Under the pieces are notes generated by a model. It saw only the letters and a list, made by a program, of their open reading frames with translations. It did not search any database and had not been told where the DNA came from. Shown one piece after another: positions 24,700 to 57,259 of a stretch of DNA of 64,000 bases. A program made the position numbers and the translations under genes. Position 1 is the stretch's first letter, and each line of letters starts with the position of its first letter. Source of the DNA: Obrimoposthia wandeli (lineage: Eukaryota); NCBI GenBank assembly GCA_977020255.1, contig CDROCS010001087.1, positions 744,001 through 808,000 on the forward strand, in the 5' to 3' direction.

Positions 24700-25260
24700 G
24701 TTTTCATGTATCTCTTTGACTGGAACAAACATCATATCTCATATCATTAACAATTTCTATTTTCGTCTGCCAGGAGTTGTGATTTGAAGTCATCAATACG
24801 CGATATCGGAAACATACTACAGGTCTCGAAAAGTCGTTTGCACCAGAAAGATTCTCTTAAGTAGGTGGATGTGTCCGGTCTAATCCACACCCCTCCCCCT
24901 TGTCCTTTAAAACCGTGCATGTGTGTGGAGTGAAATTTCGTGTAGGTGTGTGGAGTATAATTTCACTCCACACACATGCACGATTTTAAAGGACAAGGGG
25001 GGTCCCAAATTTTTATTTCGCCCCCTTGTCCTTTAAAACCGTGCATGTGTGTGGAGTGAAATTTTACTCCACACACCTATACGAAATTTCACTCCACACA
25101 CATGCACGGTTTTAAAGGACAGGAGGGTGTGGATTAGACCGGACACATCCACCTACTCTCTTACCTTCCAATAAAATTATTTCTATCCTTTCGTTGGTGT
25201 ATCGTGGATAATTCATTTTTGACATATTGAATCAATAATGATTGTTAAGTCTGTACGAAA
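24700..25260 (-). mobile_element. Possible Helitron RepHel remnant, interrupted by the mini-Polinton
   Basis: After removing the insertion, fragments FYW..SGA..TFRDL..V..LLADE resemble the Helitron FYLRLLL..GPTSF-DL..GLL-DD region; weak. Confidence 0.3.
24860..25157. mobile_element. 298-bp non-coding mini-Polinton (left and right termini only)
   Basis: Starts AGTAGGTGGATGTGTCCGGTCTAATCC and ends GGATTAGACCGGACACATCCACCTACT, the same termini as 46067-57175; exact 6-bp TSD CTCTTA (24854-24859 / 25158-25163); two subterminal palindromes joined by a ~20-nt spacer. Confidence 0.95.
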
Positions 25261-36139: not shown

Positions 36140-36324
36140 AGTAGGTGGATGTGTCCGGTCTAATCCACACCCCCCTCCCCCCCTTGTCCTTTAAAACCGT
36201 GCATGTGTGTGGAGTGAAATTTCGTGTAGGTGTGTGGAGTGAAATTTCACTCCACACACATGCACGGTTTTAAAGGACAGGGGGGGGAGGGGGGTGTGGA
36301 TTATACCGGACACATCCACCTACT
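36140..36324. mobile_element. 185-bp near-palindromic mini-Polinton
   Basis: AGTAGG...CCTACT termini as in 46067-57175; a single central palindrome; exact 6-bp TSD TTAAAT (36134-36139 / 36325-36330). Confidence 0.95.
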
Positions 36325-45900: not shown

Positions 45901-46066
45901 TGCATGTTGAAGTTTATAATATGGTTCCATGTTGTCATAATAATTGTTATGAATCGTACTTAAAAAATAAAATAGATAAAGTTGACATAAGAATTATAAA
46001 ACCTAATGTTGATGTGGAATGTATTGTTGCTCAAATGCTGATAACTGCATTGATGTTGATGCATAT

Positions 46067-46350
46067 AGTAGGTGGATGTGTCCGGTCTAATCCACACCCC
46101 CTCCCCCCTGTCCTTTAAAACCGTGCATGTGTGTGGAGTGAAATTTCGTGTAGGTGTGTGAAGTGAAATTTCACTCCATACACATGCACGGTTTTAAAGG
46201 ACAGGGGGGTCCCAAAAAACGTTTTCGCGCCTCTCGGCGCGAAAGGCTCGGGACGGGTGTATATCACAGACTTCCTTGGGTGATGGATGTTAGACGGTGG
46301 GTGTAAGTCGATGAGTGATGGGTGTAAGTCGTTGGTGGGTGGTGGGTGTT
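46067..46350 (+). repeat. Left terminal inverted repeat with subterminal palindrome
   Basis: Core ~145 bp matches 57030-57175 in reverse; further similarity 46250-46350 to 56880-56975; palindrome arms 46103-46147 and 46165-46209. Confidence 0.92.
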
Positions 46351-46516
46351 GGTGACTACACATGTAGACGACCCGTGTCATACCCAAGACCCTAATACAC
46401 ACCACCCGCCCCTTTGTGGCGGGCTTCATTCTTGATCTCCAGGCACGAAAAACATTACAAAAAATAAATTATTTGAATAAGAGGCTCTCATTGGACAATA
46501 AAAGAGGGTTAGTAAG

Positions 46517-48388
46517 ATGTTTGTGTATATAAAGACACGTCCGTTCATTATTTTTCATAAATCAACAATTCCATTCTACAACAACGTTGACCTAGACGAA
46601 GAGACAGAGGTTCAACTCTATGGGGATCTCTCTCCAGTGCAGCAGCAAACGCCACCACCGTCGCAATACATTGACTTACATAGTCAAGACTCATCGGTGG
46701 TGAGCTAAGGAGAAGCAGCAGCAAGAGCAGACCTGTTGGAAGAAGAAGCCCCATTGGCCAGCTCAACTCCAAGAGAACAACCAATGGACGTGAGAGGCGG
46801 GGTACAGAGATCCCAATATATTGACCTGACAAGTCAGGATTCGATAAAGAATTGGGGAGACTGTACTCCCAGGCAAAACATAGAAGCTGTTCGTCCAGCA
46901 ACTTCGGCAGTAGCAGCAAGGAAATCCTGGCCATGGAAATTGATCCCGCTGTCGCAGCCGGAGAAAGTCCTCGCACCAGACTCAGACGAGGAGTTGTTCA
47001 CCGATGACGTTCCGTCGGATGGGGAGGAGGACTTGATTCCATTCATCGATGAATGGATACAGCCAAGTATTGGAGCCCCAGGAGCCAACGAGTCGATGGT
47101 GGCAGAATTGGACGAGGACGAGTTGCACCTGTTCACCTATGATAATAAACCTATGATTGGGATGGTCTCACTTCCTCTGCTACTCCGAAAGCGGATAATA
47201 CAACGCCTGAACCATTCAAAAGGCCGAAATCTCCTGTTAGGAGAATAAAAGCGATGAATGAGGTTAGACATCATTTATTTTAAATGTTTTTAATTTCATT
47301 TTCAGAAACTTCAACTAGATTTGGCACCGTCAGTGACCATGACGGAGAGGCTGATTGAACTGCAGTACTTGGCGAGTCAATGTAGTCAGGAGCTGCCAAG
47401 GAGTCAGCTCCGATACCTAACGTCTCCAGATAATTTTAAGGTAAATTATTAGATATTAAATTTAATAATTCACATAGATGGAGAACATTCTCGAAATGGC
47501 GACGCCTATTCAACCGGTGGATAGGAAGCAAGCGGCAGTTAAGAAACCGCAACGCCATCGGGTCAAAACCCACACTCGGAAGAAGGCCAAGTTGGTGAAA
47601 CAGGCTAACCTGCCCATCATTGAGGTAAAATATTTATATGTTTAAATGTTATTAATATTTTGCAGGAATCCGTCCAGATAATTGAGGAGAAATGGGGAGA
47701 AATTACTCCTTTCCCGCGGAAACGGACGAAGCGAGCAGAGATGAAGAAGGCGAAGCGCTCAAGAACATGTTCCACCTCAATTGGCCATAATTCTGAGACA
47801 GTGATTGGACGGCAGGAGATTCTCCCATCTCCAGTGGACGACGGGGCAATTCTATACGAGAGGATCCCAGTCTCACCGATCGAGATTAGTCCGCCATCAA
47901 ATCAACGACGCGTACAGGAGACATCAAATTTGGCCAGGGTTTGTGAGACTGCATCTCCAACAACCAGCCAAAACTTGAAGAGGGCCTGGGATGAAGCTGA
48001 ATTGGATGAATTCCAGGCGGAACTGGATACACCGGCAATGCTTCCAGATTCGCTAGGGAAACAGGATGCCGTCTCACGTCAGCTTCAGTGTGAGAAGGAG
48101 GAGAAACAGAAGAAAACTCCGCGGGAGAGGAAGACTACTGCTTTTATGTCAGGGCCATGAACATCGGCTGCACCTCCTCCCAAAAAGTTTCGGGAAATAT
48201 TGCCAAAACCTGAGGGAAGGACAATTGCTACAAACCAACAGGTGAAGGCGAAAAAGAAAACGGGCCGTCCAAAGAAGAATTAACCAGTACCGCTTTCTCC
48301 ATTAATACTTAGTCAGAGGGATTTCGATCCGGATGATCCCAATGATGACTTTGTAAAGATGTTTAAGAATATAATTTATAAAAATTAA
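46517..48388 (+). pseudogene. Orphan low-complexity nuclear protein gene with three introns
   Basis: Phase-0 introns 47263-47305, 47441-47477 and 47625-47665 join an open frame (..RPKSPVRRIKAMNE|KLQL..PDNFK|MENIL..LPIIE|ESVQ..); in-frame stops at 46706, 48158 and 48281 plus a frameshift near 47153; true start uncertain. Confidence 0.75.
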
Positions 48389-48605
48389 TTTCATATATTT
48401 TCTTCCTTATATTTATTTTTTTAAAAATTTTAAATTAGAAATATTAAAATACTATCTTTAAGTTTATTAGGTTTAAATGCAAGATAAGTTATAGATTTAT
48501 TAAACTCTTATTTGATAAATAAAAATATATCATATTATTGGATTAAAAAATATCTTAAATTTATATACATAGGTTCAAAATTATGAACCTCATCATAATT
48601 AAAAA

Positions 48606-48928
48606 ATGGAATTCATTAAAATGAAGAGTCTGGTAACGAAGATTGAAGCAAACATCAGAAGAAATGAGAAGAAATGGGACTTAAGAAAGAGGGTCCTCAA
48701 TCAGAATATGTATACTGCTGTCGCGACCGAGTGGAATCATCGGGTGGAGATACAAGATAGGAGGTTAGCAGAAAGACGTCGAAATATTGGAGTGGAATAA
48801 GAAGATCGAAATGGAAAAGAAGGAAGTGGATGAAAAAAGAAGAGAAGAGATGGAGGATAATCGTCGAGCAGCAAGAAAGAGAATCCTCCAGATTAAACCG
48901 GAAGAGGGTCCTTCTAAAAAAAATTAAT
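48606..48928 (+). pseudogene. Small charged coiled-coil-like orphan protein
   Basis: MEFIKMKSL..RRRNI then a frameshift to LEWNKKIEMEKKEVDEKRREEMEDNRRAARKRIL..KKN*. Confidence 0.55.
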
Positions 48929-49068
48929 TTTTGATTATTATTTTGTCTTTATTGATTATGTTACATAGGAGAATTGACAATATATACCAATCTTAACATG
49001 AAAGTACTTTGTTATTTTAATGAATTTTTCGTTATAAACAACGGGATTTGCTGCAAATTTAGATAATT

Positions 49069-49560
49069 ATGCAGGAATATATTATAGATTTTGAGGCTTT
49101 CATTAACAAAAATGGTGATTATATTATAAAAAAATTATGTATTATGGATGTATGCGACGTTTTTCATCCTTTGCATTTCATATTTCAAATAGATATCCCG
49201 TTTAAAAGTTTAGATTATAAGAAAAAATTTACTAATTTATATCTAACTAATTACCTTCATTTATTAAAATGGAAAGAAGGACATAAGGCTTTTTGTGAAA
49301 TATGTATTTTTGATACAATAACATTTAATTTTGATATAGAAATTGGATTTTTTTATGTTTTAGATGAAATGGATGGCAAAAAGTATAAGACTTTAAAAAA
49401 ATATTTTCCCAAATTGAGATTGAATACTTTAAATATTTCACGTGATCATCTATTAAAAATTCCACGAAATATTTGCTGTCGATATCGTAATCATGGTGAC
49501 CATTGCACATATTAAAAATGTTTAAGTCTATCTTATTATTACTTGACATGTAGATAAACA
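49069..49560 (+). CDS. DEDD/DnaQ-like 3'-5' exonuclease family protein
   Basis: ExoI-like IIDFEAF..IIKKLCI, LKWKEG, and C-terminal CRYRNHGDHC..KC; probable premature stop at 49513. Confidence 0.6.
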
Positions 49561-49747
49561 ATTCGTCTAATTCATAATTTTCATTCAATTACAAACAATT
49601 CTTTTGATTGGAGGAATAAAAATTATTTTTTCGACCATTTACAATCCTTCTAAATTTTTTTAATCCAATAGGAAAAGAGCATGTGTGCATAAATTTTAGT
49701 ATATAAGCAAACACTTTCTTCATTTAAATCCCCGACAATTTGAAATA

Positions 49748-52700
49748 ATGACTATTGTAAGAATCTATACTTATTATTTCCTTATTAATATTTATTATTT
49801 CAGATTACTTGTATCCTGTTTCCAGCATATTGTGGTGCTTCAGCTCCACATGGAGGATAGACCTGCATGGAGATAATGTCCGCCTACTATCAGACAAAGT
49901 CTCGAGGGCTTCACTTCTTCGTCTGCCCCTTCTGCAGAACAATGGAGGAAAAGGAGTTTCGAGTCTTCTTCGGTGAACATCGAGCTCATCTATCGTGTTT
50001 CACGGCCAACAAAAAGAAGAGGGATATCGTGCAATTGGTGCGCGATTCGCTGGCCGCACCTGCTCCAATTCCAGTTGCAGTCGATCAACCCGTTTACGGT
50101 CCTGCAATTGATCTCCTGGCTCCTGATTCTGCCCCATCCACTCAAATGACTAACAATGAGTGGATGAATGACATATCCCAGTCAGATTTCGAGATGGAGC
50201 GATAACTCCTGGTTGGAGACCACCGAGGAATTCGATTTCGTCGAGATAACGGACGACAGCTGGATGGATTCCATCAATGAAGATGACTTCATTCCAGCTC
50301 CAAATGTATTGCCTTCATTAGGTATTTTTTATTTATATTTTTTTAAAATTGTAATTATATATATTATTGTAATTATATTTTATTTTAATTTTTTATTCAG
50401 GAAATACCGTGATACAGCCGTCATCCGTTACGACAGCCATGCCTCCCCCATCGCGAGTGCCTACATCGATGTTAGCACGTCTTAGAGGTAATAATATTAA
50501 AAAATATATTTTTTTTTTAATATTTTTTTTCAGCAGCATTATCCTCTACAACAGCCGCTTCTTTATCGGCAAGGTCAGCTCCTACCTCAAATGCAGCATC
50601 TACAACTGCAGCAGCACTTACTTCAGCAGCATCTACTACATCAGCTGCGATTGCCTCAACATTGGCAGCATGTCCAATAGCAGCACCTTCAACCTCAACT
50701 GTTAATATAAATAGTTGTCTTCCCGTTCAATTAGGGGGAGGTTTGTCAGCGACTGTAGGAAGAAAGAGGCGAGGCCAATTTCTTAATAAGGTCCCACCAA
50801 AAAAACGTAGAGAAAACGGTGCTACTATAGAGTATTACTTAAATAATAAATATGTTATAGTTAAGGTGCCATTAGGAAATGAAATTTTATTAAACGTAGG
50901 TGTAGATTCAAATATTGAAAATCTTTTAAAATCAGAAGTGACTAAATTAGGACAGGCTAAGGTTCAATTTTGCGCAACAGTGCAGTTTAAAAATGTCAAT
51001 GAGGAAACTAAAACTTGGGTAATTTCACATAAAGCAACTGTTTTCTATGTTAATTTTGTAACTGAAATTGGAAGAAACCTAGATGAAAGAAAATTGCTAA
51101 TTATAGCGAGTTAAGTAGTGGATGGACTCTGGTAAGAATTCACGATGTTAGCTTTGTTCTAACAAAGTTCAATGACATTATATATCTTTCGTGGAGTTCA
51201 TATATTCCTTCACCTAGATCTCTTTAACTTTCACCTTCCATTGTTAACGTACAAAACAGTGATAACCTTTGCTTTCTGTATAGCGTGTTGGCCATCCTCA
51301 AAAGAATGTAATTATTGAGCACAGAGAGCGTGTCAGAAAATATACCCCTTTTTTAAATGAATTGCATTATCATGGAATAGATTTTCCTGTTAAATTAACT
51401 GCGATATCAAGATTTGAACACCTTAATAACTTGAATATTAATGTATTCAAATATAATACTGATATCTCAATTAATGTAACAGATGAAGAAATTAAAAAAA
51501 AACATTTTGTAGATGTAATTTATAGGAGCAAAAATGAGGAGACTCAGGTCAACTTCATTTTGCTCGAACATAATAAAAAATTCCACTATGCTGCAATTCC
51601 CAATTTAGATCGTCTTCTAAATTTAGATAATGGAGCCTTACCGGTTAGGATAAGGTGTAAGTGGTGTCATAGATGTTTGCATGGATTCCGATCCGAGCTC
51701 TCTTACAGCAAACATCTGACATTATGTTCACTGAATCCTGATGACAATACGCTATATAACATGCCTAAGGATAAGGATTTAAAATTCAAGTATTGGACAA
51801 AATGCGTAACCGTGGAATTCAGGGTGTATGCTGATTTTGAGTCAAATTTAGCATTGCACGATCAGTATGAGAGTATTCACATACCGGCTTTGGCAGGCCT
51901 ATTATTCTTAAGCCCCAATATTACACAGTATCATAAATCTTTCGGTCCAAATTGTATTTTAGATTTTATGTTAAAATTAGAAACAACAATTGTCAAACTG
52001 TGGTATGATCTTAATGCTCATCAAGCAATCATCATGACAGGCATATACTGGGTTAATTTTAATTCTTGTAGATTATGTTATTTGTGTGGAACCCAGTCTA
52101 AGTTAGTCAGAGATCACGATCCTGTTACGGGGCGATACTTGGGAGCGATGTGCAACCTCTGTAACCTTGGCCGTCGTCTCCCTAAAAAACCACGAATTCC
52201 CATCGTGTTTCATAACCTCAAAGGATATGATTTGCATCATATACTTAAATATGCGTTGGGTACATTAAGCTCTTGGGAAATTTCATGTATACCTCAAACT
52301 TCAGAGAAATATTTATCTTTAACTGCATATACTGAATTCTGCAGTTTAAGATTCATAGATTCTTTGCAGTTTTTGAGGGGGTCTTAAAAAATTTAACGGC
52401 ATCTTTAAATGCATGGCCTATCACACAGTCAGTGTTTCCAACTTCGGTTAATGATAAGGGGATTTTTCCGTATAAATTTCCGTATAAATTTGCGAAAACC
52501 TTTGCAAATTTAGAAAATACTACAGAAATCCCACCCATAACTGAATTTCAAAGTGTAAGTCTTCAAGACTATAATGACGCCCGTATATTTTGGGCGAATA
52601 ATTGTCGAAATCTTCTTGAATATATGCTTTATTATATGAAATTAGACATTTATCTTTTAGCTGATGTTTTTGAGTCCTTTCGTGTAAAGTCTTAAGCAGA

Positions 52701-54119
52701 AGATGGGCTAGATCCCATGCATTTCTTTAGTTTACCTGGTCTTTCATGGGCATCAGCAATAAAAACTCTTAAAATTAATATCGAGTTACTGCAAGATCCC
52801 GCAATGTATCAAATGTATGATTATGGTATACGCGGTGGAATGACTTTTGTCAACAAACATCATGTTTTCAAAAATTAATCCACGGAGATTCTGTACATCG
52901 ATATTACTAATTTGTATGGGTGGGCGCTTACTCAACCTCTATCTCATGGCAACTTTAAGTGGGTTTATGACGAGGAAGAGTTGAATAAGTTGATGACAGA
53001 TTTGGCTACTGTCGATACAGTTTCATCATACATCGGCTATTTGGTTGAGGTTGACTTAACAATCCCTTCCAATGTGCATGATAAATTAGATGATCTTCCA
53101 GTAGCGCCTGTTCATTAATCCCCACCTAATTCAAAGGTTAAGAAATTATTGTTAACCCATGAAGACAAGTTGAATTATGTTGTGCATTGGCGGCTTCTTC
53201 AATTCTACTTAAAGTTGGGAGCGAAAGTTACTCGAATTCATCGTGTTATAAGCTTCAGTCAAACCTTGTGTTTAAAGACTATATTGAGAAGAATTCTAGA
53301 AAACGTAATTTGGCTACTAGCAAATTCGATCGGGATTTTTACAAGTTAAAAAATATTAGTCTCTTTGGAAAAACTGTAGAGGACTTGCGGAAACGTATTT
53401 GTCTACGGTTTTGCAATGATGAGCGTAAATTAATAACATATACTAGCAAGTACAACTTCAAGCGTAGTTTTACAATTGCAGATGACTTGGTAGCAGTGTT
53501 ATTAGGAAAACAGAGTATTTGTCTCGATCGACCGAGTTATATAGGTCAAACGGTTTTAGACATTTCTAAACTCAGAATGTACGAGCTTCAATACATAGAA
53601 TTGGAGAAATATAGACAAGAATTCAATTGTGAGATCAAAATCGCAGCTGGGGACACTGACTCTTTCTTTTTAGAATGTAAAAATGTTAGTTTAAATAATC
53701 AATTATTACCGGCAATGTTTAGGGACAACTTATTAGATACACATAAATATCCCGCTAACCATCCTCTACACTCTATGAGTTTAAAGGATATTATCGGGAA
53801 ATTTAAGGATGAAAGCGAGAGACAAGTTTTGTATGATGATTGTATTTTCCTACGCCCTAAATCCTACAGTTTACATGCATCTAATAATACATGTTCAATG
53901 AGAGCAAAGAGTGTGGAAAGAAACAATCTTACATATGAGGCCTACCGGAAAGTTTATGATACTGGGTGTATTGAAAGCGTTGAGCAAACTAGATTTATTT
54001 CAAGAGCCCATCAACAGTATTTCCATAAATCAACAAAAATCGCTTTGAGTAGTAATGATGACAAGCGCTTTTGGGTAGAAAAGAACGCTAGCCTGGCTTA
54101 TGGACACTTCCGAATTTAA
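49748..54119 (+). pseudogene. Protein-primed family B DNA polymerase (pPolB) with spliced N-terminal extension
   Basis: Motifs HNLKGYD and FIDS (exonuclease), YIDITNLYGWAL (A), KLKNISLFGKT (B), GDTDS (C); N-terminal SGWTL..NVQNSDNLCFLYSVLA; introns 49757-49803, 50322-50400 and 50488-50533; multiple stops and frameshifts. Confidence 0.93.
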
Positions 54120-54314
54120 ACGGTTTTCATTTTTTGATTTTTTTAGTTTAGTTTTTTTAAATTTTAGATCACTATGGCACCTTGACTCTAACTTTTTGTT
54201 ATTTCAAAACAGTTTTAAGGATGGACCTTATCTTTGCTGACAGATCTCATTGTGATGTTGTTTTTAATAAATGTATTAAAAATAATTCGTCTTATGTCTT
54301 TTATTATTTTACCC

Positions 54315-54752
54315 TTATATTTTAAGGGATTTAAAAATATAATTCAAAATAAAACATTTAAAATTTTTATTTTTATAACACACTAATCGTTTTGCATAAA
54401 ATACATAAATGTCCACAGTTTCTCGTCGCAGGATCCTGATATTGTATCTTGTTGTAAAATACTCTTCTTCGTCCTTTTTGAATAGTTGAAACAAGTTTGT
54501 GTGGATAATACATTGCAAGTGGATCAAATACATTATTGTCCACTCTCTAACATAAATAGCTATCCAATGTTCTCCTGGTAAATTCGAAGTATGAGTATTG
54601 ATAATGTATCCTCCAGATTGAAAAAATGGAATCATATCAATAGGATAAACTCCATTGAATTTATCACCCAAGACCTTCTCTGTTAATTCTTGTACTTGTA
54701 CTGAACTAAATAAAAATTAATAAATATAAATTTAAAAAATATCTTACTTAAT
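54315..54752 (-). pseudogene. Adenain-like cysteine protease (Polinton PRO)
   Basis: GVYPID..IINTHTSNLPGEHWIAI (His), VFDPLA (Asp) and, after frameshifts, QYQDPATRNCGHLC (Cys); 42-nt intron 54706-54747 near the start; start codon appears lost. Confidence 0.85.
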
Positions 54753-54859
54753 TCTATAATATGACAGTTCTGTTTTTATTTATTTAGGTAAAACATTATC
54801 AAATTCATCAAACGCTTTTTGCCTTATTTTAAGCTTTTATGGTTTTTATTGTATGGGTT

Positions 54860-55409
54860 TCAAAGGTATTTCTGTTTAAACCAATTGTTTTTAGCGAGTT
54901 TATCATCAAATAAAACTCGTATTATATTGCTCTTTACTGTAAACGTTATTTTACTATTTTTCAATGTTAAACATTTATCGAAATATTCACTACATTCCTT
55001 CTGTATTAATTTACAGAAATTCACTTCACTATCTAATTTATAATCTTTTGAAAACATTTTCAGTTCCACTACATATTCAAACATGCATTTTTCTTTCATT
55101 TTCTCTGCAGTTTTAAAAAGATTTATCTGTTTCCTAAGATTAGCCGAAATCGTGATTGATTGTATTGCAGTGATTCGAATTCCAAATGGTAAATTGAACC
55201 CAAGCATTGGTATTTTGCATCCCATAACACGACAATTTCCTAAAATAATTCAATATGAAAATAAAATAATAAAACTAACCTGTAGGAAAAATAACAACTG
55301 TAAAATTGTCAAACATTTCCACATATTGTCTCGGCTTCCATTCATTGAATGGTAAGTACGAAACATCATCTTCTGTTCTATCTTTATAATTTATATTTAC
55401 GAGTTTCAT
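54860..55409 (-). CDS. TATA-box-binding-protein-like protein (divergent)
   Basis: ATG at 55409; phase-1 intron 55240-55279 gives MKLVNINYK..KPRQYV..TVVIFPTG|NCRVMGCK..IQSITISANLRKQINL..CMFE, collinear with TBP QLQNIVST..TALIFSSGKMVCTGAK..IQNMVGSCDVKFPIRL..SYE; C-terminal part does not resemble TBP. Confidence 0.6.
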
Positions 55410-55624
55410 TAGACTAAAATTGTATTCTGTAAATTCTTCTTTATATATGTCTGAACCTGTTTTTTATTGCACATTTCTTGTAATTATCTTGCAAACCTAT
55501 TATAATTGGATGATATATTTAATCCAATCAAATTCAATGCTTTAGTTATATTAACCAATGAGATTCATGTCTTTGTTAGAAATTAGTATAAAAGAATGCG
55601 CCATTGGAGGACAAATCACAGTAA

Positions 55625-56109
55625 ATGCATTCATATCAAAGACAATTATCAACAATGGATGATAGCCAACGGGTATTAAGCGGTGACGAAGATTCGGAAA
55701 TATTTGAAGAATCGGATAAGGATATGTATGAAGAAGTGAAACAGTATTTCAAATACAAAGTCAGATTCTTGAAGAAGGCTCAACTGATTGCTTTAGTTAA
55801 TCCTGTGACAATTGAAAGAAGAAAGTTCAGCTACTATCTATCAGGTATTCAAAAACCTGATTTTCAATATCTTAAACAGAAAATAGAAAAGACAGTTCCA
55901 AATTTTACTTTCAATAAGAACGAATTTTATATCCGAGGACCAGATTTCTAGCATTTCTAGATGACTATGGAAGATATGTTGATATTGATGCGTTTCCGAA
56001 AAAGAAGCAATGGACTGTAACAATTCGACTTTATGGTTACAAGAAAGATGAAATTGGAACAAAGTTGCCTATGTGGAAAATTGAACGTGCTCATATTTCT
56101 ATGTTTTAA
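55625..56109 (+). pseudogene. Putative OB-fold ssDNA-binding protein, paralog A
   Basis: Frameshift near 55950; clear similarity to paralog B; C-terminal WTVTIRLYGY..LPMWKI. Confidence 0.45.
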
Positions 56110-56246
56110 CTTTTGCATGTCATAAATTGTAATCAGTTTTACTATGTTTCTTTCATTTAATAATCAGTTTTATTTATTTAAATATTTGTATCTTATATGT
56201 ATTTTTTTATAAACATTGTTTTTTTAATCAGTTTCCTTATTTTAGA

Positions 56247-56651
56247 ATGGATAAGAGATGTGTAGCAAATTTTTCTCATCCAGAAAGAATTTCAAAAGAA
56301 AAACTATGTAATATATTAAAGAGGCATCAAATTATACGAGTTATGAATCCTGTGAAAATATCAAAAGTGGAGAATAAATATCTCATCGAAATTTTAACAA
56401 CATCTGATTTTGATCAATTGAAAAATATTTTGGGATTTTACATTCCTGATTATGTATATGAAGGAAATTGTTTCGAGCTTGAACCTGATCCCAGTCTAGA
56501 TTTTAAAGATGATCTAGGATATTTGATTGCTCCAATTCTAGATGAAGAACTATGGAATATCTCAATACGTCTCAATGGATATTTTGCTGATGACGGGAAA
56601 ATGCAGCCTCTTTGGACTTTGAGTGAAGCCAATATGTTGTTTTATGTTTAA
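56247..56651 (+). CDS. Putative OB-fold ssDNA-binding protein, paralog B
   Basis: Intact 134-aa ORF; C-terminal WNISIRLNGY..G..QPLWTLSEA; the SSB function is inferred from pattern only. Confidence 0.5.
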   Translation: MDKRCVANFSHPERISKEKLCNILKRHQIIRVMNPVKISKVENKYLIEILTTSDFDQLKNILGFYIPDYVYEGNCFELEPDPSLDFKDDLGYLIAPILDEELWNISIRLNGYFADDGKMQPLWTLSEANMLFYV

Positions 56652-56789
56652 TAAATGTTTTGAAAAATAATTTTGAAAAATAATTTTGACTCGTATTTTG
56701 TTTTTTCTCCTCTAAATTATATAGATCTGACCGATTTTTTATCCTATAAATTCTAAAACTGACATAGATATTTAACATGTAAGGATATT

Positions 56790-56930
56790 CATCACTTTCA
56801 CCCATCACCCACCGATTTTCACCCATCACCCATCGACTTTCACCCAACACCTATCGACTTTCCCCCAACACCCATCGACTTTCACCCATCACCCAACGAC
56901 TTTCACCCAACACCCATCGACTTACACCCA
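56790..56930 (+). repeat. 21-bp tandem repeat (~7 units) in the right subterminal region
   Basis: Consensus CATCGACTTTCACCCA(A/T)CACC; ~3 inverted copies at ~46287-46345 in the left end. Confidence 0.9.
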
Positions 56931-57175
56931 CCGTTCAACATCCATCACCCAAGGAAGTATGTGAAATACACCCGTCCCAAGCCTTTCCAATACAAGCCTT
57001 TCCAATACACCCGTCCCAAATGTTTTTTCGGACCCTCCCTCCTGTCCTTTAAAACCGTGCATGTGTGTGGAGTGAAATTTCACTCCACACCTACACGAAA
57101 TTTCACTCCACACACTTACACGGTTTTTAGACAGGGGGGAGGGGGTGTGGATTAGACCGGACACATCCACCTACT
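56880..57175 (-). repeat. Right terminal inverted repeat with subterminal palindrome
   Basis: Reverse complement of the left end; ends ...GGACACATCCACCTACT. Confidence 0.92.
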
Positions 57176-57259
57176 GCATATTATAATGAAACTGTATTAG
57201 AAGATGTTTATAATCTAGAGTATACATAGAAGCCTAGACAACATTTGGAGTATACTATT

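Follow-up and report, generated by a model that had tools for sequence, protein, structure and literature searches.

Short candidate spliceosomal introns in genes of a Polinton family of Obrimoposthia wandeli

A Polinton/Maverick element of Obrimoposthia wandeli lies within a stretch of 64,000 nucleotides of contig CDROCS010001087.1, here called the window, to which all coordinates refer unless a locus label (L number) is given. The element belongs to family A, one of three Polinton families (A, B and C) in the host genome, and four of its genes are interrupted by eight short AT-rich segments. Comparison with related elements showed that these segments are non-coding, phase-keeping interruptions of colinear genes, that they were fixed before the family expanded, and that two of them are common to distant families. 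Judged from sequence, they are very probably ordinary introns of the major spliceosome in genes of an autonomous Polinton family.

Eight phase-keeping interruptions in four genes

The interrupted genes and the segments within them are as follows.

46517..48283, + strand: ORF1, accessory low-complexity protein upstream of pPolB, four exons (46517-47262, 47306-47440, 47478-47624, 47666-48283; per-copy tests), broken in the window copy
47263..47305, + strand: intron 1, 43 nt, phase 0, ORF1; 43-45 nt in copies
47441..47477, + strand: intron 2, 37 nt, phase 0, ORF1; 38 nt in 28/30 copies
47625..47665, + strand: intron 3, 41 nt, phase 0, ORF1; per-copy test
49748..54119, + strand: pPolB, four exons (49748-49756, 49804-50321, 50401-50487, 50534-54119), zinc-finger-like part in exon 2 and catalytic motifs in exon 4, broken in the window copy
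49757..49803, + strand: intron 4, 47 nt, phase 0, pPolB, following codon 3; per-copy test
50322..50400, + strand: intron 5, 79 nt, phase 1, pPolB; 73-115 nt in copies, 75 in 11/18
50488..50533, + strand: intron 6, 46 nt, phase 1, pPolB; 31-49 nt in copies
54383..54752, - strand: adenain-type cysteine protease, exon 1 54748-54752 (5 coding bases) and exon 2 54705 to ~54383, broken in the window copy; 53-64% identical to the proteases of families B and C
54706..54747, - strand: intron 7, 42 nt, phase 2, protease codon 2; site shared by families B and C
55076..55409, - strand: TBP-like gene, exon 1 55409-55280, exon 2 starting at 55239 and truncated at 55076 by a deletion; exon 2 of siblings is PF00352
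55240..55279, - strand: intron 8, 40 nt, phase 1, TBP-like gene; 34-40 nt in copies, site shared with family C and metagenome locus L113 but not with family B

A preliminary description of this DNA had proposed GT-AG introns of 43, 37, 41, 47, 79, 46, 42 and 40 nt, and all eight were present at these lengths. Each runs from GT to AG, with a GT donor and a YAG acceptor in 8/8, and six of the eight upstream exons end in AG. GC content was 0.06-0.19 in the introns and mostly 0.28-0.53 in their flanks.

Copies were compared one by one, in the window and 29/29 loci for introns 1-3, in 18, 17, 16 and 11 of 20 loci for introns 4-7, and in 17/17 chosen loci for intron 8. The window included, GT was kept at introns 1-8 in 28/30, 29/30, 28/30, 17/19, 18/18, 16/17, 12/12 and 18/18 copies, and AG in 30/30, 29/30, 29/30, 19/19, 17/18, 17/17, 12/12 and 16/18. 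The preliminary description had named a lack of spliced reads together with unconserved splice sites in other copies as the result that would speak against it; GT and AG were kept in most copies.

Stop-free flanks were counted in phases 0/1/2 upstream and downstream of each junction. The counts were 20/0/0 and 25/0/0 for intron 1, 25/0/0 and 25/0/1 for intron 2, 25/0/1 and 25/0/0 for intron 3, 0/15/0 and 0/16/0 for intron 5, and 0/15/0 and 0/17/1 for intron 8. At these five junctions a single phase was open on each side and the two sides agreed, an outcome with a chance probability, by simple arithmetic, of about (1/3)^5 = 0.004. Intron 6 was clear upstream (0/15/0) and not clear downstream (5/15/13). 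Introns 4 and 7 are preceded by only 9 and 5 coding bases, which begin with ATG in 17/19 and 11/12 copies. The unspliced reading met a stop or frameshift in 160/164 copy-sites overall; by intron, it was broken in 30/30, 30/30, 30/30, 19/19, 17/18, 16/17, 12/12 and 18/18 copies. The proposed restoration of the reading frame thus held locally, with one phase at five junctions, and failed for the window copy as a whole. There, ORF1, pPolB and the protease contain in-frame stops or frameshifts, the protease start codon is missing, two internal deletions have occurred, and past intron 8 the frame runs from TBP-like into penton sequence, a chimera produced by deletion.

Internal exons were of fixed length (135 and 147 nt in 29/29 copies, 87 nt in 12/14), and a 1-base length variant was seen in two exon stretches, in two copies each. 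Length variants of the introns differ by non-multiples of 3, in several copies each, and intron 8 was found at 35, 38, 39 and 40 nt. Substitution rates within the family were equal (0.0278 in exons and 0.0283 in introns), and no difference in conservation was found within the family between splice sites and intron interiors, as expected of copies that decay after insertion. Within-family conservation therefore proves nothing by itself, and only cross-family comparison carries weight. The check suggested beforehand, that GT/AG and phase be conserved while interiors diverge, was accordingly uninformative within the family; across families it was borne out at intron 7.

The claim that the element's introns are unusually short for this host was not upheld. 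The three longer host introns of the preliminary description (170 bp, 3.5 kb and 34.7 kb) were not located. Conserved genes at 40 loci were searched for intron junctions spanning 25-130 nt; of the 18 rows obtained, two were dropped (GC > 0.5, likely false), and the TBP intron was added. The resulting 17 host introns, a sample and not a length distribution, measured 39-105 nt with a median of 50, and 10/17 fell at 39-51 nt. Since introns of 39-51 nt are common in this sample, those of the element are host-sized. One contig carries a 48-nt host intron together with 18 element ends. The assembly is a mixture of host and microbe, with dozens of intronless bacterial-type GroEL and HtpG genes (e.g. 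L191-L204), and many of the eukaryotic proteasome genes are single-exon.

The uniform size of the introns would also suit introners, copies of one intron-generating transposon, for which dinoflagellate Polinton-like elements provide a precedent (the available text of PMC11957031). A weak likeness was seen between introns 1 and 3 (p 0.013). Across all comparisons, 2/91 pairs reached p < 0.02, which is about chance, and the introns are fixed across the family and not scattered among copies. By these pairwise comparisons, made without a genome-wide search, the eight introns are not copies of one another. Very old introners would have lost their similarity; allowing for this, we consider such an origin very improbable.

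The protease and TBP-like introns in distant families

Families B (L078, L080) and C (L082-L085, L088, L090-L092, L094) were found through a TBP search of the host genome. Capsid identity to family B is 56% for family A and 50% for family C, and 50-58% overall among the families that share introns. The proteases of families B and C match PF00770 at E 0.006, under the cut-off, and their His, Asp, Gln and Cys motifs were read in the sequence. An intron stands at the same codon and phase of the protease in 2/2 copies of family B (39-40 nt) and in 3/3 tested copies of family C (42-44 nt), with different interiors. Removal of intron 7 makes the protease colinear with intronless homologues, and the protease start is uninterrupted in the metagenome Polintons L104, L109 and L161. 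In a capsid tree of 8 rows, families A, B and C formed a clade with L113, a separate metagenome contig (support 100/99), and L104, L109 and L161 fell outside it; an ATPase tree of 10 rows gave no resolved branching. L113 ends 15 bases into the protease and has the same start and donor. Most likely, the protease intron was gained once in the ancestor of the clade of A, B, C and L113, and the other introns are younger or have turned over. The preliminary reading of the segments as spliceosomal introns of a Polinton is supported, and their age is enough for families with such divergent capsids to have them in common.

The protease start lies on, or at most 4 bases from, the stop codon of the major capsid gene, and protease exon 1 comprises 5 coding bases. 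Stop/start overlaps (ATGA) join capsid and protease in families B and C, and integrase and penton in family A. The capsid/protease spacer is 1 base in family A and 3 in L113, and the late genes are tightly packed (junctions at L080 7629-7633, L082 8711-8717, L060 5575-5582, L089 7830-7838 and L113 7166-7175).

The count of four split genes, pPolB and the protease among them, was confirmed, and the identity of the fourth, which the preliminary description had missed, is that of a TBP homologue (PF00352). Exon 2 of siblings matches this family at E 2e-10 to 4e-12, and only the second half of the gene scores as TBP. The gene is found in all three Polinton families (window 55076-55409, - strand; L080 1806-2237; L082 1754-2240) and in L113 (243-714). 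Its intron occupies the same site in family A, in family C (5/5 copies listed) and in L113 (40 nt), and is absent from family B (2/2; the site reads AG-GT) and from 11/12 metagenome junctions listed. Uninterrupted TBP-like homologues, 38-60% identical, made up 60/68 candidate metagenome proteins, and 12/80 metagenome loci adjoin Polinton genes. With X placed at the junction, 0/74 aligned rows had a gap within 8 columns of it; the TBP-like rows include 50 database proteins, which are biased to uninterrupted frames. A scan of IMG/VR for TBP-like relatives gave 40 pattern matches, none confirmed. Overall, colinearity with intronless homologues after intron removal is direct for introns 7 and 8 and indirect for introns 5-6, and rests on phase for introns 1-4.

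The five intron-bearing rows were scattered in the TBP-like tree, and a single clade was not rejected (p-AU 0.41, 36/74 rows). The TBP-like intron may have had a single gain followed by loss, or repeated gains at an AG-GT site. The host TBP frame is unbroken at the motif that carries intron 8 in the element; the host introns lie further 3', and one of them is 47 nt long. By this comparison, the TBP-like intron was not inherited from the host TBP gene. At the host TBP locus (L066/L067, C238 872059-873736), two matches on opposite strands face each other head to head, separated by about 1.2 kb. Two further TBP-like ORFs (L069 1066-1761 and L070 1036-1761) have both repeats in full and no intron; they are divergent and resemble neither host TBP nor the Polinton gene.

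These comparisons bear on whether the AT-rich segments are junk, expanded by slippage or inserted after integration, or spacers between small ORFs, and were never spliced. Their interiors are homopolymer-rich and variable in length, all examined copies are decayed to some degree, and splice sites within the family mutate at the background rate, as this explanation would have it. It does not account for the presence of the segments in nearly all copies, and so in active ancestors, for their identical codon and phase in families whose capsids are 50-58% identical, or for gap-free colinearity with 69 intronless TBP-like rows. Moreover, the protease start codon would otherwise be useless in these copies, the first Met of exon 2 lying at codon 23 in 11/12. 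We regard it as extremely improbable.

Alternatively, the introns could have arrived with captured host cargo genes, as in nematode Mavericks, the viral core being intron-free. ORF1 lies in a GC-richer region beside the left repeat, comparable to the intron-bearing cargo zone in the available text of Widen et al. (10.1101/2022.07.12.499685), and TBP is ultimately a cellular gene. The protease and pPolB are, on the other hand, core genes (accessible part of PMC5718144), host TBP has no intron at the element's site, and the metagenome TBP-like proteins are mostly uninterrupted, with some of their loci beside Polinton genes. Arrival with cargo is unlikely as an account of the introns, although ORF1, with introns 1-3, may be of cargo origin.

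The start of pPolB and the case for splicing

Five exonuclease and polymerase motifs lie at 51827, 52208, 52894, 53343 and 53646, all in the last exon of pPolB, and introns 4-6 are all upstream of this catalytic core. In siblings, this exon stays open over as many as ~1,200 codons. PF03175 matched pPolB fragments at E 0.004, under the cut-off, and a PDB sequence search gave no solved-structure match. In families B and C, a single open frame covers both the zinc-finger-like domain of exon 2 (E 2e-10 and 5e-9) and the polymerase, which supports the joining of exons 2-4 in family A. The Atlas gave only leads below 0.9 (RING-like) for this domain.

If pPolB started inside exon 4, exons 1-3 would be a separate spliced gene and removal of intron 6 would be unneeded. 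An in-frame Met 12 codons into exon 4 in 9/17 copies, from which a long polymerase could start unspliced, is consistent with this, and stops do not settle the phase downstream of intron 6. The shared frame of domain and polymerase in families B and C argues for one continuous gene, as does the length of exon 2, 1 mod 3 in 13/18 copies, and an exon 3 that is stop-free in 15/17, as such a gene needs. An internal start is, in our judgement, quite improbable.

The pPolB gene of family C has an N-terminal intron of its own, 40-42 nt long (L082 9500-9760 and siblings; 4/4 copies scanned at the site), and an intron-like segment directly ahead of its start codon. A ubiquitin-like LRGG end, read by eye at L083 ~953-995, precedes its zinc finger. 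Family C also carries a BIR+RING IAP gene (L082 2288-3172) and an exonuclease-like ORF (L082 ~560-1220, read by eye). Two further 40-nt GT-AG segments were seen in accessory genes of L113 (830-869 and 1303-1342). Short introns elsewhere in family C and L113 suggest that introns turn over in this lineage.

In the explanation that we favour, ordinary introns in Polinton genes, integrated copies would be transcribed in the nucleus and the host spliceosome would remove the introns like its own minimal ones. The signals for removal would be the GT donor, a T-rich tail, a TNAAY branch-like motif and, mostly, AG at the exon end. The introns would have been gained singly, each at a proto-splice site close to a gene start or within a variable N-terminal region. 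Polintons replicate DNA to DNA, and with no reverse-transcription step to purge them, introns would persist.

Several points weigh against this explanation, including the Met in exon 4 described above. Splicing is deduced from comparison of DNA only. For introns 1-6 no counterpart was seen in other families: families B and C gave no ORF1, and their pPolB N-termini differ. L113 shows only the donor of the protease intron, owing to the contig end, and the protease acceptors of family C are weak (AAG or CAAG, with no pyrimidine tract). The TNAAY motif was present in 8/8 element introns (shuffle p 0.007) and in only 9/17 host introns, and both motif and search window were picked after looking. Finally, the assembly holds many bacterial genes, and some 'host' loci could come from another organism.

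The element, its known relatives and implications

The element is bounded at 46067-57175 by inverted repeats and a 6-bp target duplication, both as in Polintons/Mavericks. Its further features are listed here.

46061..46066, no strand: left target-site duplication, 6 bp, equal to 57176-57181, read from sequence
46067..46342, + strand: left terminal inverted repeat, starts AG; arms 46067-46112/57130-57175 100% complementary, 46241-46342/56886-56987 89%
48606..48927, + strand: ORF2, small charged protein, broken in the window copy, no intron seen; no Pfam match
49069..49515, + strand: ORF3, conserved accessory protein, no intron seen; homologues 28-43% identical
54750..54785, - strand: major capsid gene, 3' remnant beside a ~1.8-kb deletion at 54785/54817, by comparison with siblings
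54817..55075, - strand: putative penton gene, middle fragment, labelled from position and size
55625..56109, + strand: right-end accessory ORF R1, broken in the window copy; ORF reading, siblings
56247..56651, + strand: right-end accessory ORF R2, acceptor-like site immediately 5' of start; ORF reading, siblings
56886..57175, - strand: right terminal inverted repeat, by complementarity to the left repeat

The window copy is a dead, deleted Polinton/Maverick copy of 11.1 kb; a full family A element is ~15.7 kb and integrase-bearing. Compared with siblings, it lost ~1.8 kb at 54785/54817 and ~2.8 kb at 55075/55076, the latter removing the integrase, ATPase and small genes. The parts deleted from it and present in siblings are an rve integrase with chromodomain (PF00665, E 4e-13 to 1.5e-7), a packaging ATPase (PF04665 Pox_A32, E 3e-6 and 2e-5, over the cut-off), a pX-like protein, a putative penton and the major capsid protein. 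In siblings, no break was seen in the frames of integrase, ATPase, penton and major capsid protein, and the integrase, ATPase and capsid genes show no introns. The major capsid protein gave no Pfam match and no PDB sequence match (searches empty or chance-level); that of a relative matched a cluster in which 30% of members carry PF21738 DJR-like (Atlas feature score 0.98). The putative penton frame is conserved at the expected place, with no family match in Pfam.

In the host genome (1.35 Gb), the 39 best other DNA matches were 92-94% identical. Family A numbers thousands of copies: exact 20-mers of the ends occurred 17,727 times genome-wide (control 0), a count that includes gene-less derivatives. 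In a family of this size, host RNA should readily yield junction reads. Two short gene-less elements with the same terminal repeats lie in the window at 24860-25157 and 36140-36324.

ORF1 had no Pfam family over the cut-off. It repeats a YIDL(T/H)SQDS motif (46660-46860, + strand), which resembles a SUMO-interacting motif and whose copy number differs among siblings. Homologues of ORF3, 28-43% identical, were found in family B and five Polinton-type metagenome loci. The acceptor-like site before ORF R2 (56230-56247, + strand) was kept in 13/13 siblings listed and may mark a 5' UTR intron; it was not counted as a ninth intron, having no clear donor. For leader splicing, a universal acceptor ahead of every start codon was sought by eye and none was seen. 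Outside the element, 24 window ORFs had no Pfam family over the cut-off.

Like animal Polintons/Mavericks (adintoviruses, polintoviruses), the present families have terminal inverted repeats, the 6-bp target duplication, pPolB, an rve integrase, a packaging ATPase, an adenain-type protease, capsid genes and a pX-like protein, with accessory genes upstream of pPolB and, in family C, an IAP gene as in adintoviruses. The usual description of core genes as intron-poor agrees with the papers cited here, which call them intronless. The available text of Barreat and Katzourakis 2021 (PMC8097293) reports no introns in genes of intact vertebrate elements, agreeing with Kapitonov and Jurka; in that of Widen et al., core genes are intronless and introns occur in cargo only; and the accessible part of Bellas et al. 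states that endogenous viruses contain no introns, for which reason a prokaryotic gene finder was used. This is a description and not a mechanistic requirement, and here, in contrast, the protease and the N-terminus of pPolB are split and the protease intron marks a capsid clade.

Spliceosomal introns in integrated Polinton-like elements are shared with dinoflagellates, whose introns (Gozashti and Corbett-Detig 2025, PMC11957031) are copies of a repeated transposon, in most cases acquired once the element had integrated, whereas those described here are unrelated to each other, family-fixed and cross-family. Genes of cryptophyte Polinton-like viruses also contain introns; these are self-splicing group I introns of 309-376 nt and not spliceosomal (PMC12220804, part available). 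Starrett et al. 2021 (PMC8502044) describe an IAP gene in adintoviruses and, in a figure legend silent on which element and how widespread, label a TBP-like gene in a MELD element with adintovirus-like PolB; here, the gene occurs in three host families and beside Polinton genes in 12/80 metagenome loci, and is split by a candidate intron in some. Nothing relevant was found in the available portions of PMC10748475, PMC6431247, 10.64898/2026.10.13.758929, 10.1101/2024.03.25.586562 and 10.64898/2026.07.28.741278. A full-text literature search found no inherited spliceosomal introns in Polinton core genes; subscription journals, supplements, figures and Repbase may hold cases. That an intron-bearing Polinton lineage is real, contradicting the common intronless description, is well supported.

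Adenoviruses are nuclear relatives with pPolB and adenain, and the host splices their mRNAs; the coding sequences of adenoviral polymerase and terminal protein begin in a tiny exon upstream. The tiny start exons of pPolB and the protease described here are alike in this respect. Adenoviruses join long leaders to alternative acceptors, whereas here minimal, local introns belong to an element that integrates.

For this host the introns are nothing unusual; they lie outside catalytic cores, and standard searches would still find family A. The expectation that ORF-based surveys would miss these genes was overstated, since motifs lie in the last exon and core frames are whole; truncation does apply. 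ORF callers would clip the protease (23 codons and the start exon), the first TBP-like exon and the pPolB zinc finger, and would split ORF1. The effect on discovery is modest, as most core genes are whole, and the N-termini and ORF1 would be misannotated.

The clade-wide protease intron could, we suggest tentatively and with considerable doubt, serve as a control, such that protease would be produced solely from messages spliced by the host, setting its level low and late relative to capsid. If this is true, the control intron and the TBP-like factor encoded by the element would together amount to a nuclear gene programme that depends on splicing, in a group regarded as free of introns, and the element would take its introns along from host to host. 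Introns are assumed to be absent in surveys of endogenous DNA viruses, and shared intron positions offer a new inherited marker for Polinton families. Such introns would make the host nucleus and spliceosome necessary for expressing a gene of virion maturation, a point of relevance to the site and mode of replication of these elements.

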